This document shows, one piece after another, positions 4,379-16,071 of a stretch of DNA of 64,000 nt. A model generated the notes under the pieces. The model did not search any database and had not been told where the DNA came from. It saw only the letters and a program-made list of their open reading frames with translations. Where the stretch lies: IMG/VR virus record IMGVR_UViG_3300042691_041718, positions 64,001 through 128,000 of that record, one strand, 5' to 3'. How positions within the stretch are numbered: the stretch's first letter is position 1; each line of letters opens with the position of its first letter. The translations under genes were made by a program, and so were the position numbers. The DNA comes from a virus.

Positions 4379-4648
4379 ATGAGAATATTAGATTTTGGTA
4401 GATATAAAGAGATAACATCAGCTAAATTCCGTGTCAAGAGAATAGATGAATCTAGTGATGAGACTTGTTATTATGTCTTACTTTCAATTAATGGTGAAAG
4501 GATAAATGGTGAGATATTCTGTGATTCTAATGGTGAGTTAGAATGTTATCAGTTCTATAATTCAGAAGGTAGATGTATAAGTGAAATATACGGAACTGAA
4601 GTTGTGGAAGATTTAGTGAGAAAGAAATTAAAAAAATTAAGAAAATGA
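4379..4648 (+). CDS. Hypothetical protein
   Basis: The ORF track starts at GTG 4364, inside the promoter element, so ATG 4379 is preferred. Coupled to the next gene by an ATGA overlap. Confidence 0.6.
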   Translation: MRILDFGRYKEITSAKFRVKRIDESSDETCYYVLLSINGERINGEIFCDSNGELECYQFYNSEGRCISEIYGTEVVEDLVRKKLKKLRK

Positions 4649-5232
4649 GTAATATATGGTTTACTTCAGATACGCATTTCGGGCATACAAATATAGCTGG
4701 TCCCAAAATATCTAGATGGAATTCTGGATATAGAAATTTTAATTCAGTTCATGAGATGAACATGGCTCTTATTGATGGTATCAATAAGTATGTCAAAGAA
4801 AATGATATACTATATCACTTAGGTGATTGGAGCTTTGGTGGAATTCACAACATCAAATTATTTAGAGATTCAATTGTTTGTAAAAAAATTCATCTTATTT
4901 TAGGAAACCACGACCAGCATATAGTTGATAAAGAAGTAAAATTCCACGATTCTTCTTTTAACCCAATTGAACTTTTTTCATCAGTTCAAGATGTTTTACA
5001 AGTTTCACATGGAAAACATAAATTTTTCATGAGTCATTATCCACATTTATCTTGGGATGGGAGTCATAAGGGGGTTATTATGCTACATGGTCATGAACAC
5101 TCATATTTTGATCATTTAAATAAAAACACTTTAAGAATGGATGTTGGTGTCGATTCCGCTAAAATAGTATTAGGTGAATATAGACCTTTTAGTATAGAAG
5201 AGGTTATTGATTTTAATAGTAGAAAAAAATAA
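4645..5232 (+). CDS. Calcineurin-like metallophosphoesterase
   Basis: Motifs SDTHFGH, HLGD, GNHD, SHYP, HGHEH and DVGVD. Confidence 0.9.
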   Translation: MSNIWFTSDTHFGHTNIAGPKISRWNSGYRNFNSVHEMNMALIDGINKYVKENDILYHLGDWSFGGIHNIKLFRDSIVCKKIHLILGNHDQHIVDKEVKFHDSSFNPIELFSSVQDVLQVSHGKHKFFMSHYPHLSWDGSHKGVIMLHGHEHSYFDHLNKNTLRMDVGVDSAKIVLGEYRPFSIEEVIDFNSRKK

Positions 5233-5295
5233 TTCAGATAGCACATCATTAGGGAGTTATTCACTTTTAATATATAATTAAAAGAATAAACTCTT

Positions 5296-6174
5296 ATGAG
5301 AAAGTGGAATAATGATGAATTGGATTTTTTGTTATCTAATTATGCTAAAGAGGGAATTAGCTTTTGTTCTAATTTTCTTAATAGAACACAAAGAAGTGTT
5401 CAAAAAAAGGCCTCAAAACTTGGATTGAAAGTTGACATTGAAACGATTAAGTCTCTTAGATCATCAACTGTAAAATGTAGTTGGGAGAAAAGAAATGACT
5501 CACAAAAAAACCTAAATAAGGTATTAAACGTGTCAATTGATGACATTTATACTAATCCTACATTTTTATATATTTTAGGTTATATATGGGGTGATGGTTA
5601 TATTCATAATGGTGGTCTTGGTAAATCAAATTCGGTATCGTTAGAAATTATTAAAGATGATGGTTTGGATATTTATGAAAAGATGATGTCGGTTATAAAT
5701 TGGAATATTTCATATAGAAAAAGAAATAATAGAAAAGAGCAAATTTGTTTTTCTATATATAATAGAATATTAATTGAATATTTAGTATCTTTAGACTATC
5801 ATAAGAAATCTTATAATTATCCTATAATTTTAGATAATTTAAGTTTTGATATGAAAAGGTATTTTTATATGGGATTGTCGGATGCTGATGGTTGTTTTTA
5901 TTATAATTCGAAACATTATAATACACAATATTCAATATCATCCACCATTAATCAGGATTGGAGACACATCTCTGATATTTTTGATTATTTAGGTATAGAA
6001 TATAAAATTAAAAAGAGAGAGACTATAAATAAAAGTGGTAATATTCACACACACTCTTTGGTTTTAATATCCAATAAAAAAGATGTTTTAAAATTTGGAG
6101 ATTATTTATATGGTGATGATTTTATAGGATTGAAAAGAAAATATGAAAAATATCTTTATATAAAAAATTTGTAA
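5296..6174 (+). mobile_element. Free-standing LAGLIDADG homing endonuclease
   Basis: Two LAGLIDADG helices (YILGYIWGDG, FYMGLSDADG) and an N-terminal HTH-like WxxxE repeat; own TAATATATA at 5268..5276. Confidence 0.85.
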
Positions 6175-6206
6175 TTTAATATTACTTTTTTATTTTTATA
6201 AAATTA

Positions 6207-6413
6207 GTGTTGATCATCATGAATAAGAGTCAAATTATAGAAGTTAGTTTACAATTCAGAAAAATTATTATAAACTCCAATTATGGTTTGCCTAATAAGT
6301 TTCTAAATATAGATGATGAATATTATTCAGAAACTTTTAAGTTAAAAATACTTTATAAAAGATTTCATAAAATAGAAAAGATATGGAAAAGTGGGAAGAC
6401 GCACAATCAGTAG
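6207..6413 (+). CDS. Small protein with a PolB motif-B-like segment and an RxxKIxxI tail
   Basis: RKIIINSNYG, then KRFHKIEKIW. ATG at 6219 is the likelier start. Confidence 0.55.
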   Translation: MLIIMNKSQIIEVSLQFRKIIINSNYGLPNKFLNIDDEYYSETFKLKILYKRFHKIEKIWKSGKTHNQ

Positions 6414-6736
6414 TTTGTATAAAACCATACTTAAATTATAGAGTTGGTGGTTCTTATAACATAAAAGGTAGAGGAAACTTGACTTTTAATGCTGACCCAG
6501 AAGTTGGTGGTAGAAAAGGTTGGGGTATTTGTATCGAAGATGATTGGTACGGATCACACGATGATAAAGGTAATCTTATAAAAGATTGGTGGAAAAAACC
6601 ATATTCAGAAAGAATTAAGTGGTATTATTTAGATTTAAATGAGTTAAATACTTATTTCATAACTTATGATGAATATTGGGAAACTAAATTGAAAGCGGAT
6701 AGAAGAGAAGATAAACTTAATCAATTAGGTATATGA
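6383..6736 (+). CDS. Hypothetical protein with C-terminal tail RREDKLNQLGI
   Basis: 117 aa ORF; ATGA-coupled to the next gene. Confidence 0.7.
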   Translation: MEKWEDAQSVVCIKPYLNYRVGGSYNIKGRGNLTFNADPEVGGRKGWGICIEDDWYGSHDDKGNLIKDWWKKPYSERIKWYYLDLNELNTYFITYDEYWETKLKADRREDKLNQLGI

Positions 6737-7113
6737 AGTATAAAGATAATAATTTTGTAAACTATCAAGATAAACAAAGAAATGGTAACTTTGATTACTA
6801 TTCAGATAAAAGTGATAGACAAAAGAGGAGAGAATTAGAACATAAATTGTCTATTTTTTATATGGGAAAACTTTCAAATAGAATTGAAAAGTTATGGTGG
6901 AATAATCTTAAAACATCTGATAAAGAAAAAATTTGTAGAGGTTATAATAACCAGTTAGATTATCTTTTACAAGATGAAGGTTATAGGAAATCACTTTGGT
7001 ATAGTCATAAAGTATTTGAGTCTTGGGAAGAATGGTTCGATTATATCAAAGTTGAGTATAAACCAAATAAGTCTTCTTATAGAAATGATAAATTGAAAAT
7101 GTTGGGTATATGA
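6733..7113 (+). CDS. Hypothetical protein with C-terminal tail RNDKLKMLGI
   Basis: 126 aa ORF; ATGA-coupled. Confidence 0.7.
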   Translation: MKYKDNNFVNYQDKQRNGNFDYYSDKSDRQKRRELEHKLSIFYMGKLSNRIEKLWWNNLKTSDKEKICRGYNNQLDYLLQDEGYRKSLWYSHKVFESWEEWFDYIKVEYKPNKSSYRNDKLKMLGI

Positions 7114-7343
7114 AAGTTCCTACTATTGAGGTGTTGGTAATGTCTTTATATAATGATATTTTAGATGCTAAGAAAAAATTAAAAAAATTAGAAAATGATT
7201 CAAGACTTAATATTTATCCAAGTCAGATAGATGTTTATCAAGAAATGAGTGAGTTAAAAAATTTTATTCAAAAAAATGAAGAATTATTAAGTCGATACAG
7301 GACTACAATAAGAGATGAAAAACTTAAACAATTGGGTATATGA
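7110..7343 (+). CDS. Small coiled-coil protein with C-terminal tail RDEKLKQLGI
   Basis: 77 aa ORF; ATGA-coupled. Confidence 0.7.
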   Translation: MKVPTIEVLVMSLYNDILDAKKKLKKLENDSRLNIYPSQIDVYQEMSELKNFIQKNEELLSRYRTTIRDEKLKQLGI

Positions 7344-7744
7344 CAGAAGATGAAGTTTTTGATATTATAAAGGATGTCTATTTTGAAGAAAACTTTGAAA
7401 TAAATAAAGCAAAGTATGCTTTTTTAGGTAAACCTAACTATACTAGTTTTCGTATAAAGAAGTATAATAATAAATTTAAAGGTTTTTATACTCATGTTAG
7501 AATACAAAATAAAGTATTAGGAAATCAAATACTTAATGATCATTGGGTTGTTATTGGATGTAATATTTCCAATGAGTATGAAATTGATTTCGATAGTGTG
7601 TTATCATTACAAATGTTTAAGGATTGGTTTGATGAATTGTTGGAAGCTGAGAAAAAGGTAGATCATTTAAAAAGTCGGTTCAATAAAATGAAAAGAAATT
7701 TTAAATCTGAACTAAGAGATTATCAATTAAAAAAGTTATTATGA
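7340..7744 (+). CDS. Hypothetical protein with C-terminal tail RDYQLKKLL
   Basis: 134 aa ORF; ATGA-coupled. Confidence 0.7.
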   Translation: MTEDEVFDIIKDVYFEENFEINKAKYAFLGKPNYTSFRIKKYNNKFKGFYTHVRIQNKVLGNQILNDHWVVIGCNISNEYEIDFDSVLSLQMFKDWFDELLEAEKKVDHLKSRFNKMKRNFKSELRDYQLKKLL

Positions 7745-8625
7745 AAGATATAAAGAGTTTTTGTAAGTTATTTGATTTGAATGTTCCAAATTTCAATGAA
7801 TTTGATTATTATATCAATCAATATAAAAAATTGTGGAGGTGGAAAAATATTGATGATTTAATAACATTATATGAATCAGCTGAATTAGAGATTGAAGATA
7901 TTTACCAGTTTAAATTGGATAAATCAAATGAGGCTATTGAGTTTCTTAAAAAATCGAGAGCTTATAATGAATTAAATGATGATAATTTAATTACTGATTT
8001 ACCAACCAATAAAAATGTTACTTTATCAGAAGATAAAAAATATTTATCTATCGATTTGAAGATGGCTAATTGGCAGGTTCTTAAAAAGTATGATCCATTC
8101 TTCCTAAATGAATTAGGAGATACTTATTCTGATTTCTTAAATAAGTTTGATATACATCCAATATTTCACAAGTCTAAACATTTCAGACAATACATCTTTG
8201 GTAATATAAATCCAAAAAGACAAGTTAGAGCTCAAAGAGTTATGATTGAAGATGTTATTAATAAATTGAGTGGTTTTGATGGTTTAACATTGGAATTTAT
8301 TAAGTATGATGAGGTTATATTCTCTTATGATGATATAAAAAAATTACAAAAAGAAGTTCTATTAGATATTATTAAAAATGAGTCTTATAATGTTAAAATA
8401 TTCAAAACTAAAATAACAGAAGATTTTAGAATAAATACTTATTTAGACTTTTTTGAAAATGAACTATATAAGGAGTTAACTGGTTGTGATGGTAGAAAAT
8501 ACTTTATTTACTTAAAAAAATACATATTTAATGAACCTATTGATATAAGAGACCTTTATTTTAGATGTGATGGTGACTTAGCAATCTGGGGAGTTGAAAA
8601 CTTAAAAATTGAACTAAATGACTGA
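7741..8625 (+). CDS. Hypothetical protein (possible polymerase palm-like acidic motifs)
   Basis: 294 aa; YLSIDLKMAN and IKYDEVIF. The function is uncertain. Confidence 0.6.
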   Translation: MKDIKSFCKLFDLNVPNFNEFDYYINQYKKLWRWKNIDDLITLYESAELEIEDIYQFKLDKSNEAIEFLKKSRAYNELNDDNLITDLPTNKNVTLSEDKKYLSIDLKMANWQVLKKYDPFFLNELGDTYSDFLNKFDIHPIFHKSKHFRQYIFGNINPKRQVRAQRVMIEDVINKLSGFDGLTLEFIKYDEVIFSYDDIKKLQKEVLLDIIKNESYNVKIFKTKITEDFRINTYLDFFENELYKELTGCDGRKYFIYLKKYIFNEPIDIRDLYFRCDGDLAIWGVENLKIELND

Positions 8626-8887: not shown

Positions 8888-9504
8888 TAGACGATTTATT
8901 TAATAAAAGACCAATTAGACTTGATAGAATGACTTGTAACTCTGGTGGTGCCGTTGGAACGGATACTGTTTTTGAAAATAAATGTATTGAAAGAGGTATT
9001 AAGGTTAGGGCTTTTTCCTATAAAACTAAATATCATGACTCACCTAATAAAGTTGAGATATCAGATGATGATTATAATGAAGGTGTTAATGAGATAAACC
9101 GTGCTAATAAGGTTTTAGGTAGATTTGGTATTCAAAAATATATGAATCTCTTAGCTAGAAATTGGTCTCAAGTTAAATATTCTAATCAAGTTTTTGCAAT
9201 AGGTAGTATAGTAAATCCTGGTAGTAAAGATAGTAAGGGTTATTATAATAAATCTAAATATGATATCGTTTCGGGTGGTACTGGTTATGCTGTTCAAATG
9301 GCTATCAATAACGAGAAAGAAGTTTACGTTTATGAACAAAATAAGAAGTCTTGGTTTAGATGGTCTTATAATGCTTTAAGATTTGTTCAATTAAAAGATA
9401 CTCCAAAAATAACAGAAGAGAATTTTGCTGGAATTGGTACTCGTGAGATAAATAGTGATGGTGTTCAAGCGATTGAAGATTTATTAAATAAAACTTTTAA
9501 TTAA
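8884..9504 (+). CDS. SLOG-superfamily (DprA/YspA-like Rossmann) protein
   Basis: SGGAVGTD, SGGTGYAVQMA and FAGIGTRE motifs. Confidence 0.65.
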   Translation: MIDDLFNKRPIRLDRMTCNSGGAVGTDTVFENKCIERGIKVRAFSYKTKYHDSPNKVEISDDDYNEGVNEINRANKVLGRFGIQKYMNLLARNWSQVKYSNQVFAIGSIVNPGSKDSKGYYNKSKYDIVSGGTGYAVQMAINNEKEVYVYEQNKKSWFRWSYNALRFVQLKDTPKITEENFAGIGTREINSDGVQAIEDLLNKTFN

Positions 9505-10483
9505 TAAAACGGAAGATATAACTTTTTAACTTTTTTTGTCCATTGATACCATTTTCTTTACAAGATTTTGATATATATTGCTTACCAATTCCGGTGTAAT
9601 CAACAACTTCCCTTAATGAGTTGAATGATTTTATTAAATCATCATTATCTGAAAATATTCCGATTTTATAAGATTTGTTTTTTCTATAATGTTTGTAAGG
9701 TGTATAATCAAATATATCACCATCATATCTAAAGGTTAGATTTTTTGTTTGATAGTATCCTTTATATACACAACATTTTTCTATCAAAAGTCGGTGGCAA
9801 TTATATTTAGTTGATGTTTCATTTACACTTCTACAAATATCCAATAGATTACCATCCAAATCGAATACTTGGATCTTTTTCATTCTACTATCAATTCTGG
9901 GTTTTTCATATTTTATAATTCTATCTTTTTGTTCTTGTATATCATAATTATTTATTCTATCTATGAATGACCATTTGAAGCCAGCTGATGTTTTTTGTTT
10001 ACCGTGACAAACTCTAGATATATGAGCTCTATTACCATTTACTGATAAAGCAGCTTCTCTCAAAGAATGATACTCTTTTATTAGATTACCATCTAAATCA
10101 AATTGAGCTACAGATTTTCTATGTGGGCTGTTTATTTTATTTTTTAGTTTTGATTGATCATTGTGCTTTCTACCAGTCCAGTCGTATCCATCACCACCTT
10201 CAGTACCATTTAATAAATCAAATCCCCATGTTTTAAATAGTGAAATATAAAAAACCTCATAAAAATCAATATCTTCTGAGTTTACTTCATCCAATACTTC
10301 TATTATCGGAATAGATTTGTTTCTTAGTAGTGAGATTATCCAATTGTTCTTCTTTGTGTTTTCGGATAGGCTATTGTTAGATAGATGACCTCTTAGTCTT
10401 CTTTTTATATTATTTGTTTTTCCAATATACCTAACTAATCCAGTATTTGGATCAGAAAGTGTGTAAATAAATTTTGTATTCAT
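9497..10483 (-). mobile_element. GIY-YIG homing endonuclease with NUMOD1-like repeats
   Basis: FIYTL...VRYIGKT...R, followed by repeated VAQFDLDGNLIKEYHSLREAA-type modules; antisense to its neighbours. Confidence 0.9.
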
Positions 10484-10531: not shown

Positions 10532-12025
10532 ATGACAAAAATTGTAACAAGGATAGCACCTTCACCCACGGGACCATTCTCGCATCTTGGAAATTTGAGA
10601 ACTTTAATTTATAACTATTTTCTTGCTAAGAAAAATGGTGGGAAGTTCTATGTGCGGTTAGAAGACACTGATAGAGATCGTTACACACCTTCTTTTCTCG
10701 ATTATTTCAAGGATATGTGTGATTGGTTAGGAATAGTTCCAGATGGTTCTTATTGGAACCCAGATCCATCAATTGGTTCTTTTGTACAATCAGAAAGAGA
10801 TTATTCTGATAAAGTTAAATTTTTGTTAAATAACGGATTGGCTTATTACGCTTTTGATACTAAAGATGAATTAGAAGTTCTTAAATCAAAAGGTTTAAAA
10901 TATGATGCGACTACTCGTATGTCTATGAATAACTCATTGACTAATCCATCAACTGATGTAATGTTGCAAAGTGGTGTTCCGTATGTTATCCGTTTCGCAG
11001 TTGAACCTAATGTTGATATTACTTTTGATGATGCTATCTTAGGAAGTATCACAATCAATACCAATACTTTAGATGATAAAGTTTTGATTAAATCAAATGG
11101 TATTGGTTCTTATCATCTTTGTAATGTTTGTGACGACCATGATATGGGTGTTACTCACGTACTTAGAGGTAACGAGTGGGTTAATAGTACACCATTCCAT
11201 GTAATCCTTTATAAGGCATTTGGTTGGGATGTACCTACATTCGCTCATTTGCCACTAATTATGAACCCAGATGGTAAAGGTAAGTTATCTAAAAGAACAG
11301 CAATGAAATATGGTATTCCAATTGCTCCACTTGGTTACACAGATGATTCTGGTAATTATGTTGATGGTTGGAAAGATTTAGGATTTGATCCAAAAGCTTT
11401 TATCAATTCATTGGCGTTAATTGGATGGAACCCAGGAGGTGATGTTGAAATTATGTCTATGGATGATATGATTAATTCATTCTCTTTAGATAGAGTTCAT
11501 AAATCAGGAGCTCGTTTTGATATGGATAAAGCAAAATGGATAAATGCTAATTATTTGAGAATGACTCCAAATAACGATTTGAAACCATTTATCAATATTA
11601 AGGATGATAGATATTCTGATGATAAGTTGAATAAAATCATTGACTTGGCTAAAGAAAGATCTGAATTCAAACATGATTTGAATACAATTGTTGACCTTTT
11701 CTTTAATGATCCGGTTATTACAGATATTAAAAAAATTGATGATAATTTTATCACAGTATTTTCTAATGATGTTGATGGATTTATCAAGAGTTGTACAAGT
11801 GTTAACTTTGATGTTCCAATGGATATCAAAGATTTGATTAACAACATTTGTAATAACAATGGTATCAAAATGGGTAAAGTGATGCCAGGGTTGAGAATGG
11901 CTCTTGTGGGTGGTATCTCTGGACCAGACTTAATGACTACTATGAGTATCTTAGGAATGAGAGAAACTATTAGTAGATTAATTAAATGTGTATCAATTTG
12001 TTATAATGATACTATGACAAAATAG
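10532..12025 (+). CDS. gltX: Glutamyl-tRNA synthetase (class I)
   Basis: TRIAPSPTG..HLGN (HIGH), RLEDTD, YAFDT, DDHDMGVTHVLRGNEW, GKLSKR (KMSKS), ALIGWNP, SGARFD, LRMALVG. Confidence 0.95.
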   Translation: MTKIVTRIAPSPTGPFSHLGNLRTLIYNYFLAKKNGGKFYVRLEDTDRDRYTPSFLDYFKDMCDWLGIVPDGSYWNPDPSIGSFVQSERDYSDKVKFLLNNGLAYYAFDTKDELEVLKSKGLKYDATTRMSMNNSLTNPSTDVMLQSGVPYVIRFAVEPNVDITFDDAILGSITINTNTLDDKVLIKSNGIGSYHLCNVCDDHDMGVTHVLRGNEWVNSTPFHVILYKAFGWDVPTFAHLPLIMNPDGKGKLSKRTAMKYGIPIAPLGYTDDSGNYVDGWKDLGFDPKAFINSLALIGWNPGGDVEIMSMDDMINSFSLDRVHKSGARFDMDKAKWINANYLRMTPNNDLKPFINIKDDRYSDDKLNKIIDLAKERSEFKHDLNTIVDLFFNDPVITDIKKIDDNFITVFSNDVDGFIKSCTSVNFDVPMDIKDLINNICNNNGIKMGKVMPGLRMALVGGISGPDLMTTMSILGMRETISRLIKCVSICYNDTMTK

Positions 12026-14680: not shown

Positions 14681-15319
14681 ATGAAATACGCAACATTTAG
14701 ATACTTATACCCGCCTCGTCCAGAGAACGCAATTCCTAGTTCTGAACTTTATTATCATGATAATGGTTCGATGGTTGCTCAACCAAAATTAAATGGTTCA
14801 AACTGTCTTATCTTCACAAATGGTGAAGTTGTTTATAAGATGAATAGACATAATGATAGACTTACTAGATTTGAAATTAAAGATGAAGAAGTACTCAATT
14901 TATATAAAGGTACTGGTGGATGGACTGTATTAAATGGTGAATACTTAAACAAGAATAAACAAGATGAAAACAGAAAATCATTTAATCATAAATTGATTTT
15001 GTTTGATATTTTGGTTAATGATGGTGATTATTTAATTGGTAAAACATTTGAACAGCGAATTAAATTGTTAGATGAAATGTTTGGTCAAAACGAATCAGAA
15101 AAAGAATATCTTTATTCAATTTCAGATAATGTTTATCGTGTTAAATCATATGAAAATAATTTTAGTGTGTTGTTTGATAAACTAACATACAATAACGAAC
15201 TTTTAGAGGGTCTTGTGTTGAAAAGAAAGAATTCTAGATTAGAAATAGGAAACACTCCAAAAAACAATTCACGTAGTCAAATTAAATGTAGAGTGACTAC
15301 TAAAAACTATAAATTTTAA
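14681..15319 (+). CDS. ATP-dependent ligase-type nucleotidyltransferase, adenylation domain only
   Basis: Motif I QPKLNGSN, III LNGEY, IIIa LFDIL, IV EGLVLK, V QIKCR; no OB domain. Confidence 0.75.
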   Translation: MKYATFRYLYPPRPENAIPSSELYYHDNGSMVAQPKLNGSNCLIFTNGEVVYKMNRHNDRLTRFEIKDEEVLNLYKGTGGWTVLNGEYLNKNKQDENRKSFNHKLILFDILVNDGDYLIGKTFEQRIKLLDEMFGQNESEKEYLYSISDNVYRVKSYENNFSVLFDKLTYNNELLEGLVLKRKNSRLEIGNTPKNNSRSQIKCRVTTKNYKF

Positions 15320-16071
15320 TTATTACTTTTTTTATAGTTATCAATTGCCCATAATGGTTGTAGATTTGATAAAGAATTGACTATTGATGGTGGTGTTTCT
15401 TTATCAAATTTACTAACTGGTATTATATGATCAATATGCCATTCACCCCAATTATCCCAAGACATGCCTTCTAAAAATTTACTTTCAATATTATCTCTAA
15501 ATTCTTTCGATGAGTATCCTAATATATCAATAGTACTCTCTGATTTTTTAATATTAAAATAGTATAGTACCCTACGTAGTGAGTTTCTCCAAGCTACTAT
15601 ATGTGGATTTTTACTTGACCAATTATAAATATACTTTCTGTGTTTTTCTTTATGTTCTGGTAGATCTTTAATGGATTCATAGTATTTCTTTTTCCAATTT
15701 CTAATATAATCTTTATTCTCTTCATAGTATCTCCGTTTAGATATTTTTACCTTTTCTGAATTATTCTTTCTATATTTTCTACCAGCATTTGAAATTTTAT
15801 CTCTAAGTTCTTGATCTGTATTATATCTATTCCTTCGTCTTTCATTAATTTCTTCTTTATTTGACTCGTACTTTTCTTTATACTTTTCAAGTAAATCATA
15901 TTTATTTTCTTTATAATAATTATTGAGATATTTTTTCATTTTATCTCTATTTTTAATTCTATATTCTCTTTCACAATCTTTACATTGAGTTCTTAATCCA
16001 TCATTTGATATCTTTAATTTATTAAAGTTTATCAGATCTTTATATTCTCCACATTTTTTACATTTTTTCAT
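15316..16071 (-). mobile_element. HNH homing endonuclease
   Basis: N-terminal CKKC...CKDC, a charged helical repeat, and C-terminal WHIDHIIP...NLQPLWAIDNYKKSN. Confidence 0.9.

Follow-up and report, generated by a model that had tools for sequence, protein, structure and literature searches.

Motif B of the family-B DNA polymerases (PolB; KxxxNSxYG, region III) lies on helix P of the fingers in the gp43 enzymes of T4 and RB69, and it is a classic insertion site for inteins and introns in PolB genes. In RB69 gp43, K560 and N564 of this motif hold the dNTP triphosphate, while Y567 reads the minor groove (PMC3564110). Split PolBs have been described in phages, for example the DNAP-N/DNAP-C pair of PhiKZ (PMC13648687). 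Also relevant to the locus described here are the PdeM-type ligase-associated metallophosphoesterases (TIGR04123). To our knowledge, no small partner protein has been described for PdeM. Arrays with one shared C-terminal peptide are exemplified by the clamp-binding tails of T4 gp43, gp33 and gp55.

The mini-ORF analyzed in this study is located in a window of 64,000 nucleotides (bases 64001-128000 of a 186,465-bp IMG/VR virus record; 28% G+C; estimated to be 69% complete) and contains a segment identical to PolB motif B in both pattern and spacing. It can be compared to the split phage PolBs of PhiKZ and of the relative LR745206.1 described below, in which polymerase segments are present as separate polypeptides. 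The pieces of split PolBs, however, are 470-515 aa long, match PF00136 significantly and jointly form a complete enzyme, whereas the mini-ORF is an extra gene with a 12-residue match. Compared to T4 and RB69 gp43, it has no motif A (DxxSLYPS), motif C (YxDTDS), exonuclease, palm, thumb or helix-N partner. With 64 aa it is too short for a palm, and an initial sequence-only reading had rightly stated that the product cannot be a polymerase. The features of the locus are:

4645..5232, + strand: metallophosphoesterase gene, C-terminally truncated in the window (Pfam Metallophos, E 5.7e-7)
5230..6196, + strand: inserted segment with a LAGLIDADG homing endonuclease gene (CDS 5296-6174; LAGLIDADG_3, E 3e-8)
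6197..6226, + strand: relic of the dead metallophosphoesterase C-terminus, YKISVDHHE-stop, 9 codons
6219..6413, + strand: mini-ORF, 64 aa, pI 9.7, start ATG at 6219
6261..6287, + strand: codons K15-G23 of the mini-ORF, K-I-I-I-N-S-N-Y-G, same pattern as motif B
6383..6413, + strand: 31-nt overlap between the last 10 codons of the mini-ORF and the start of the 117-aa gene
6383..6736, + strand: 117-aa gene with the tail ...RREDKLNQLGI, always 3' of the mini-ORF in all eight contexts including LR745206.1

A conserved small gene with the motif B pattern

The segment QFRKIIINSNYG is encoded at 6252-6287 on the + strand within an open frame that extends from 6207 (GTG) or 6219 (ATG) to 6413 on the same strand and includes ...SLQFRKIIINSNYGLPNK..., with K-x3-N-S-x-Y-G representing residues 15-23 of the mini-ORF. 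The motif B string of T4 gp43 that the sequence-only reading had given for comparison was correct: residues 552-564 of gp43 are QLNRKILINSLYG, and 8 of these 13 residues are identical in the mini-ORF, which confirms the match. The same reading had extended the frame to the GTG at 6207. This start has to be given up in favor of the ATG at 6219, the equivalent of which is used by all homologues, and the GTG falls within the dead 9-codon relic of the upstream gene.

When the entire 186,465-bp record is translated in six frames, K...NS.YG occurs a single time. Based on the amino-acid composition of the genome, 0.11 occurrences are expected in the ~57,000 residues of its long ORFs, and since a large scan covers many windows, a lone match of this kind is unremarkable per genome. 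This expectation is in line with a spurious, untranslated ORF whose motif is noise of an AT-rich genome (28% G+C, rich in K, I, N, S and Y), as is the finding that neither a Shine-Dalgarno sequence nor a promoter stands out for the mini-ORF; a promoter and terminator scan yielded no excess over shuffled sequences. The conservation of the mini-ORF down to ~30% identity among relatives argues against noise, as do pairwise dN/dS values of 0.08-0.31 and synonymous differences among relatives at the F13, K15, N19, S20 and G23 codons, both of which indicate that selection acts on the peptide. A spurious ORF is thus scarcely credible, and the mini-ORF is a real gene under purifying selection with the motif as its core.

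An exhaustive phmmer search of 1.8 billion representative proteins returned four homologues, all of them small. Positional orthologues were found via synteny in contigs of 617-687 kb and added to the profile, and the extended profile identified 118 homologue clusters of 52-85 aa with E values between 1e-28 and 1e-8. Among these 118 members, K15 is present in 117, N19 in 118, S20 in 117, Y22 in 112 (with F in the other 6) and G23 in 116, and the exact K-x3-N-S-x-Y-G pattern is found in 109, while most of the others exhibit a change of Y to F or G to S. The rest of the N-terminal half is largely replaced across the family, as exemplified by FRK to WLK and the loss of P25. In an alignment of six sequences, 13 of the 64 columns are invariant and include all five motif residues; with 13 invariant columns placed randomly, the chance of this coincidence is ~2e-4. 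Because the five motif residues are the best-kept columns of the 118-member family, the match is raised above chance, and as the conserved core of a selected family the motif is confirmed to be more than noise. The family is defined by sequence similarity as well as by its place between a phosphoesterase gene and a 110-117-aa gene, and the mini-ORF has both of these characteristics. The seven orthologues for which pI was calculated ranged from 9.6 to 10.1.

Neither the mini-ORF nor its region had a match in PHROGs, NCBIfam or Rfam, and a pattern scan of IMG/VR yielded no relatives. Among GenBank phages, tblastn with the mini-protein found none and tblastn with its 117-aa neighbor found LR745206.1 only. 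This 635-kb genome is the only GenBank relative and carries the trio of phosphoesterase, mini-ORF and 110-aa gene; a second mini-ORF-like match in LR745206.1 (L019) was spurious, being antisense to a real gene. The mini-ORF family is restricted to a clade of T4-related huge phages.

Gene order and a later endonuclease insertion

In every relative examined the mini-ORF is located directly 3' of a metallophosphoesterase gene, and the order metallophosphoesterase, mini-ORF, 110-117-aa gene was observed in L002, L003-L006, L008, L009, L011, L012 and LR745206.1. The stop codon of the metallophosphoesterase gene overlaps the start of the mini-ORF in the relatives by 8 nt or 1 nt (ATGAATAA-type). The overlap with the next gene is kept as well and ranges from 16 to 31 nt. 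The ATG of this next gene sits within the I-W codons of the mini-ORF, and the invariant W56 and K57 may therefore reflect dual coding. The tightest and oldest linkage of the mini-ORF is to the metallophosphoesterase and 110-117-aa genes and not to any polymerase gene.

The window deviates from this arrangement by the inserted segment, in which a gene for a 292-aa LAGLIDADG endonuclease ends 44 nt before the mini-ORF. This endonuclease is missing from L002, L003, L005, L006, L008, L009 and L012, all of which carry the mini-ORF at the same place. The blastn break points lie at ~5070 and ~6209; the phosphoesterase gene is diverged at the DNA level over its final 160 nt (5070-5232), and the encoded protein is without the conserved ...KIDHHG end. 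A remnant of the original C-terminus is left behind the insertion, as seen by comparison of the relic with the ends of the enzyme in L002 (...HKIDQHE-stop) and L003 (...SSVDHHD-stop), and the TAA of this relic overlaps codons 2-3 of the mini-ORF. The LAGLIDADG gene is a later insertion at the 3' end of the phosphoesterase gene.

Since motif B of PolB is a classic intein site, the possibility that the mini-ORF is an exon or target-site remnant carried by this endonuclease was worth testing, all the more with the endonuclease gene ending so close upstream. The seven endonuclease-free relatives, in which the mini-ORF directly follows the phosphoesterase gene, led us to reject this origin, which we consider extremely unlikely: the insertion came later and cut the 3' end of the phosphoesterase gene, leaving the remnant at 6197-6226, and the motif is thus not an exon relic brought along with it. 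In L011, moreover, a LAGLIDADG gene of 35% identity is found at the opposite flank of this phosphoesterase gene, which indicates that this endonuclease family homes to the phosphoesterase gene rather than to the motif. By uncoupling the mini-ORF from the phosphoesterase gene and truncating the enzyme, the insertion implies that either strict coupling is dispensable or the window copy is impaired.

The phage has at least three homing endonucleases within 11 kb. A GIY-YIG/NUMOD1 endonuclease gene (9497-10483, - strand) and an HNH endonuclease gene (15316-16071, - strand) have no counterpart in the syntenic relatives L003 and L012, and neither has a glutamyl-tRNA synthetase-like ORF at 10532-12025.

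A small-gene array, in which the bodies of the genes are mostly unrelated while the tail is common, spans 6383-7744 in the window, L011:3991-12165 and L012:8229-10004. The array genes downstream of the mini-ORF end in R-[DEN]-x-K-L-x-x-L-G-I-stop, and the following gene begins at a GG(A/T)ATATGA junction; the shared tail is found in 14 of the 23 genes listed for L011. We know of no reader of the tail. The mini-ORF was said to end in it too, a claim that is only weakly true. Its C-terminus in the window has R48-x-x-K51-I52-x-x-I55 followed by WKSGKTHNQ, without the L-G-I-stop ending, and the majority form of the family ends in ...KIWKTDGIV. The 34-nt tail-coding repeat was found at 6703, 7080 and 7310 only and not at the mini-ORF end, where the GG(A/T)ATATGA junction is likewise absent and the 31-nt overlap with the next gene is present instead. 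Judged by these residues, the end of the mini-ORF would be at best a degenerate version of the shared tail. The mini-ORF heads an array comparable to the proteins with clamp-binding tails in T4 and carries a possible R-x-x-K-I-x-x-I remnant, but differs from the genes of shared-tail arrays by the lack of the L-G-I end and of the junction.

Predicted structure and a candidate accessory role

An AF2 model built from five sequences predicts a first helix of 17 residues (3-19) that is joined by a loop (20-33) to a long second one (34-62), albeit with low confidence (pLDDT 68, pTM 0.34). In this low-confidence model the first helix ends at N19 and S-x-Y-G falls in the loop. A Foldseek search of the PDB with the model of the mini-protein returned just helical noise (E > 4), and ESM Atlas feature matches of 0.84-0.87 to NTF2/SnoaL-like fragments were at chance level. 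On a helical wheel, with the geometry derived from the sequence, W/F13, I16, S20, G23 and L24 would share one face, while K15, N19 and Y22 (i, i+4, i+7) would line up on the opposite one. The resulting exposed, polar-aromatic K15/N19/Y22 stripe would have the same i, i+4, i+7 geometry as motif B in RB69 gp43 (PMC3564110).

The reading we favor is that of a small basic two-helix accessory protein that binds a phosphate-bearing ligand or a partner, and we give it an even chance of being correct. According to this model, 6219-6413 would encode a small basic (pI about 10) helical protein whose translation would, in the normal arrangement, be coupled to that of the upstream metallophosphoesterase gene via the 8-nt or 1-nt stop/start overlap. 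The functional core would be the short N-terminal amphipathic helix, with the W/F13, I16, S20 and L24 face packing and K15, N19 and Y22 forming a conserved exposed stripe, followed by the lysine-rich second helix. The stripe might contact a phosphate-bearing ligand such as a nucleotide, the nucleic-acid backbone or a DNA end, and the mini-protein could assist, as an accessory subunit or as one that recruits substrate, the neighboring phosphoesterase, which is possibly a DNA-end-processing enzyme.

An accessory subunit is favored because of the linkage to the phosphoesterase gene, the tightest one observed, a PdeM-like signal and the conserved K/N/Y stripe. The PdeM-like signal refers to the phosphoesterase of one relative, whose weak match reached 19.8 bits and is thus far under the 150-bit cut-off. 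The likeness to the PdeM-type enzymes extends to a nearby ligase gene, which is located 8 kb downstream. Ligase, NUDIX, RecA-like and PolB-exo-like genes make up the neighborhood of the mini-ORF module. With a well-defined mutable core (K15, N19, Y22) and clear candidate partners, the mini-protein would be cheap to test. As the evidence stands, it is one more conserved small protein.

Comparison with family-B polymerases

We further considered the view that the mini-protein descends from, or imitates, helix P of a family-B polymerase. The sequence-only reading had named a profile search no better than chance as the outcome that would speak against its match, and this was largely what the searches returned. 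The other such outcome it had named, a lack of conservation, is contradicted by the 118 clusters, the dN/dS values and the synonymous changes in the motif codons. Pfam yielded no DNA_pol_B match, neither for the window copy at E <= 1 nor at E <= 10 for a set of 15 diverse members; in PDB profile searches at E <= 10 the matches were unrelated helical proteins and included no PolB; and no longer homologues (113-2000 aa) were found at E <= 1, which is weak evidence against fused forms. In addition, the E value of 0.018 in BLASTP against T4 gp43 was in the same range as chance matches of neighboring ORFs to the same polymerases. The exception was a directed hhalign comparison of the family with T4 gp43, which gave one alignment located exactly at motif B (columns 13-24 on residues 555-566) with a pairwise P of 0.0027 over 12 columns and a probability of 11%. 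At the level of the motif the likeness to PolB is real, while descent from a polymerase cannot be demonstrated.

This sole alignment is among the observations that favor a finger helix exapted from a polymerase or a mimic of one, together with the exact pattern and spacing and the finding that the five defining residues are the invariant core of the family. Also in its favor are a replication/repair neighborhood with PolB-exo-like and PolB-palm-like genes and the organization of the polymerase of the clade, which is split at the finger tip and whose C half starts with a free motif-B helix. These observations are opposed by a similarity limited to 12 columns at the hhalign probability given above, by the lack of any PolB in the database-scale searches (Pfam, PDB, longer proteins, phmmer), by a match to the clade's own PolB that is weaker than that to T4, by the absence of the helix-N partner residues and by the linkage to a phosphoesterase rather than a polymerase gene. 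Furthermore, the low-confidence model places the motif on the short first helix, while in T4 and RB69 gp43 it is found on the second helix of the finger hairpin. We regard descent from, or imitation of, helix P as unlikely, and similarly doubtful are the targets that could be envisaged for such a protein, namely the replisome, the assembly of the split PolB of the clade or a host sensor to be decoyed. A motif-B finger helix, exapted or convergent, that acts on polymerase by regulating the assembly or activity of the split PolB, or that presents the most conserved epitope of the polymerase to a host sensor as a decoy, appears slightly more doubtful, and functional reproduction of a polymerase finger by the mini-protein is unsupported. 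The most plausible explanation for the identity with motif B is that a K/N/Y helix stripe arose by convergence or chance. Against this stand the coincidence of ~2e-4 between the invariant and the defining residues, which pure chance would not lead one to expect, and the position of the directed hhalign alignment exactly at the motif.

The polymerase of the clade is represented by LR745206.1, in which two genes on opposite strands, separated by more than 100 kb, encode a T4-type PolB divided at the finger tip:

L016:385-1926, + strand: PolB N half of LR745206.1, 513 aa, motif A CYDFASLYPTT
L017:1435-2859, - strand: PolB C half of LR745206.1, 474 aa, has YGDTDS

The C half opens with the motif-B helix ...LALKLVLNGSYGAF and its motif B reads KLVLNGSYG. 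hhalign of the mini-ORF family against this motif gave a P of 0.035 over 11 columns, and the BLASTP E value was 0.2. With a P weaker than that against T4, the mini-ORF is unlikely to have been duplicated recently from the polymerase of the clade, and the C half was rejected as the source of such a duplicate.

An additional PolB-like protein is encoded in the same gene array as the mini-ORF:

7741..8625, + strand: 294-aa protein with a PolB-palm/fingers-like predicted fold (AF2 pLDDT 86)

Even though this ORF had no match in Pfam, PHROG or NCBIfam, its model matched the palm and fingers of Pol alpha, Pol delta, herpes Pol and archaeal PolB in Foldseek (Pol alpha, E 4.9e-4, prob 1.0) and VIA-align (Z up to 6.8), and ESM Atlas returned a TM of 0.60 to an 890-aa PolB. 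Its family comprises 559 homologues of ~290 aa in huge-phage contigs, with D105, K146-x3-Q150-x2-F153-G154 (at the motif-B position) and D190-E191 as invariant residues. Judging from the model, the protein has neither an exonuclease nor a thumb and only very short fingers, and it may be an undescribed minimal PolB-like nucleotidyltransferase.

The short fingers of the predicted fold, together with the occurrence of both genes in one co-directional array in the window, L003, L011 and L012, would be compatible with a mini-protein that supplies a finger helix in trans to the 294-aa protein or to the split PolB. This arrangement is very improbable. The 294-aa proteins carry a motif-B equivalent themselves and hence do not need the mini-protein, and the PolB of LR745206.1 is complete across its two halves, which include motifs A, B and C. 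LR745206.1 keeps the mini-ORF, while its match to the 294-aa family is weak, distant and partial (E 2.9e-4) and lies elsewhere in the genome. Moreover, hhalign between the mini-ORF and 294-aa families detected no profile similarity, which also led us to reject the mini-ORF as a partial duplicate of the 294-aa gene.

Should the likeness to motif B prove functional, the phage would be using the nucleotide-binding helix of a polymerase as a separate 60-residue protein, with a bearing on the assembly of split polymerases and on host sensing of phage replication proteins; it would, if true, be the first free-standing polymerase-motif protein. The by-products of the analysis may matter more, namely a widespread unannotated family of ~290-aa PolB-palm-like proteins and, in this huge-phage clade, a T4-type PolB that is divided between two distant genes.

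In the 186-kb record (69% complete), PF00136 and PF00476 had no match and PF07733 had one weak match, and neither of the two LR745206.1 PolB halves was detected by tblastn. A 224-aa free-standing PolB-exo2/RNase H-like gene (G000:C1:61857-62300, E 3e-11) is located ~2 kb ahead of the window, and a weak match to DNA Pol III alpha (G000:C1:44896-45171, E 0.005) may represent the minimal split Pol III alpha of group 2.2 jumbo phages (PMC7824862). The gene content of the record, with PolB-exo2-like, ligase and NUDIX genes, the weak minimal Pol III alpha and several homing endonucleases, as well as RecA-type genes in relatives, is similar to that of T4-related jumbo or huge phages and fits group 2.2 of Iyer et al. 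(PMC7824862).
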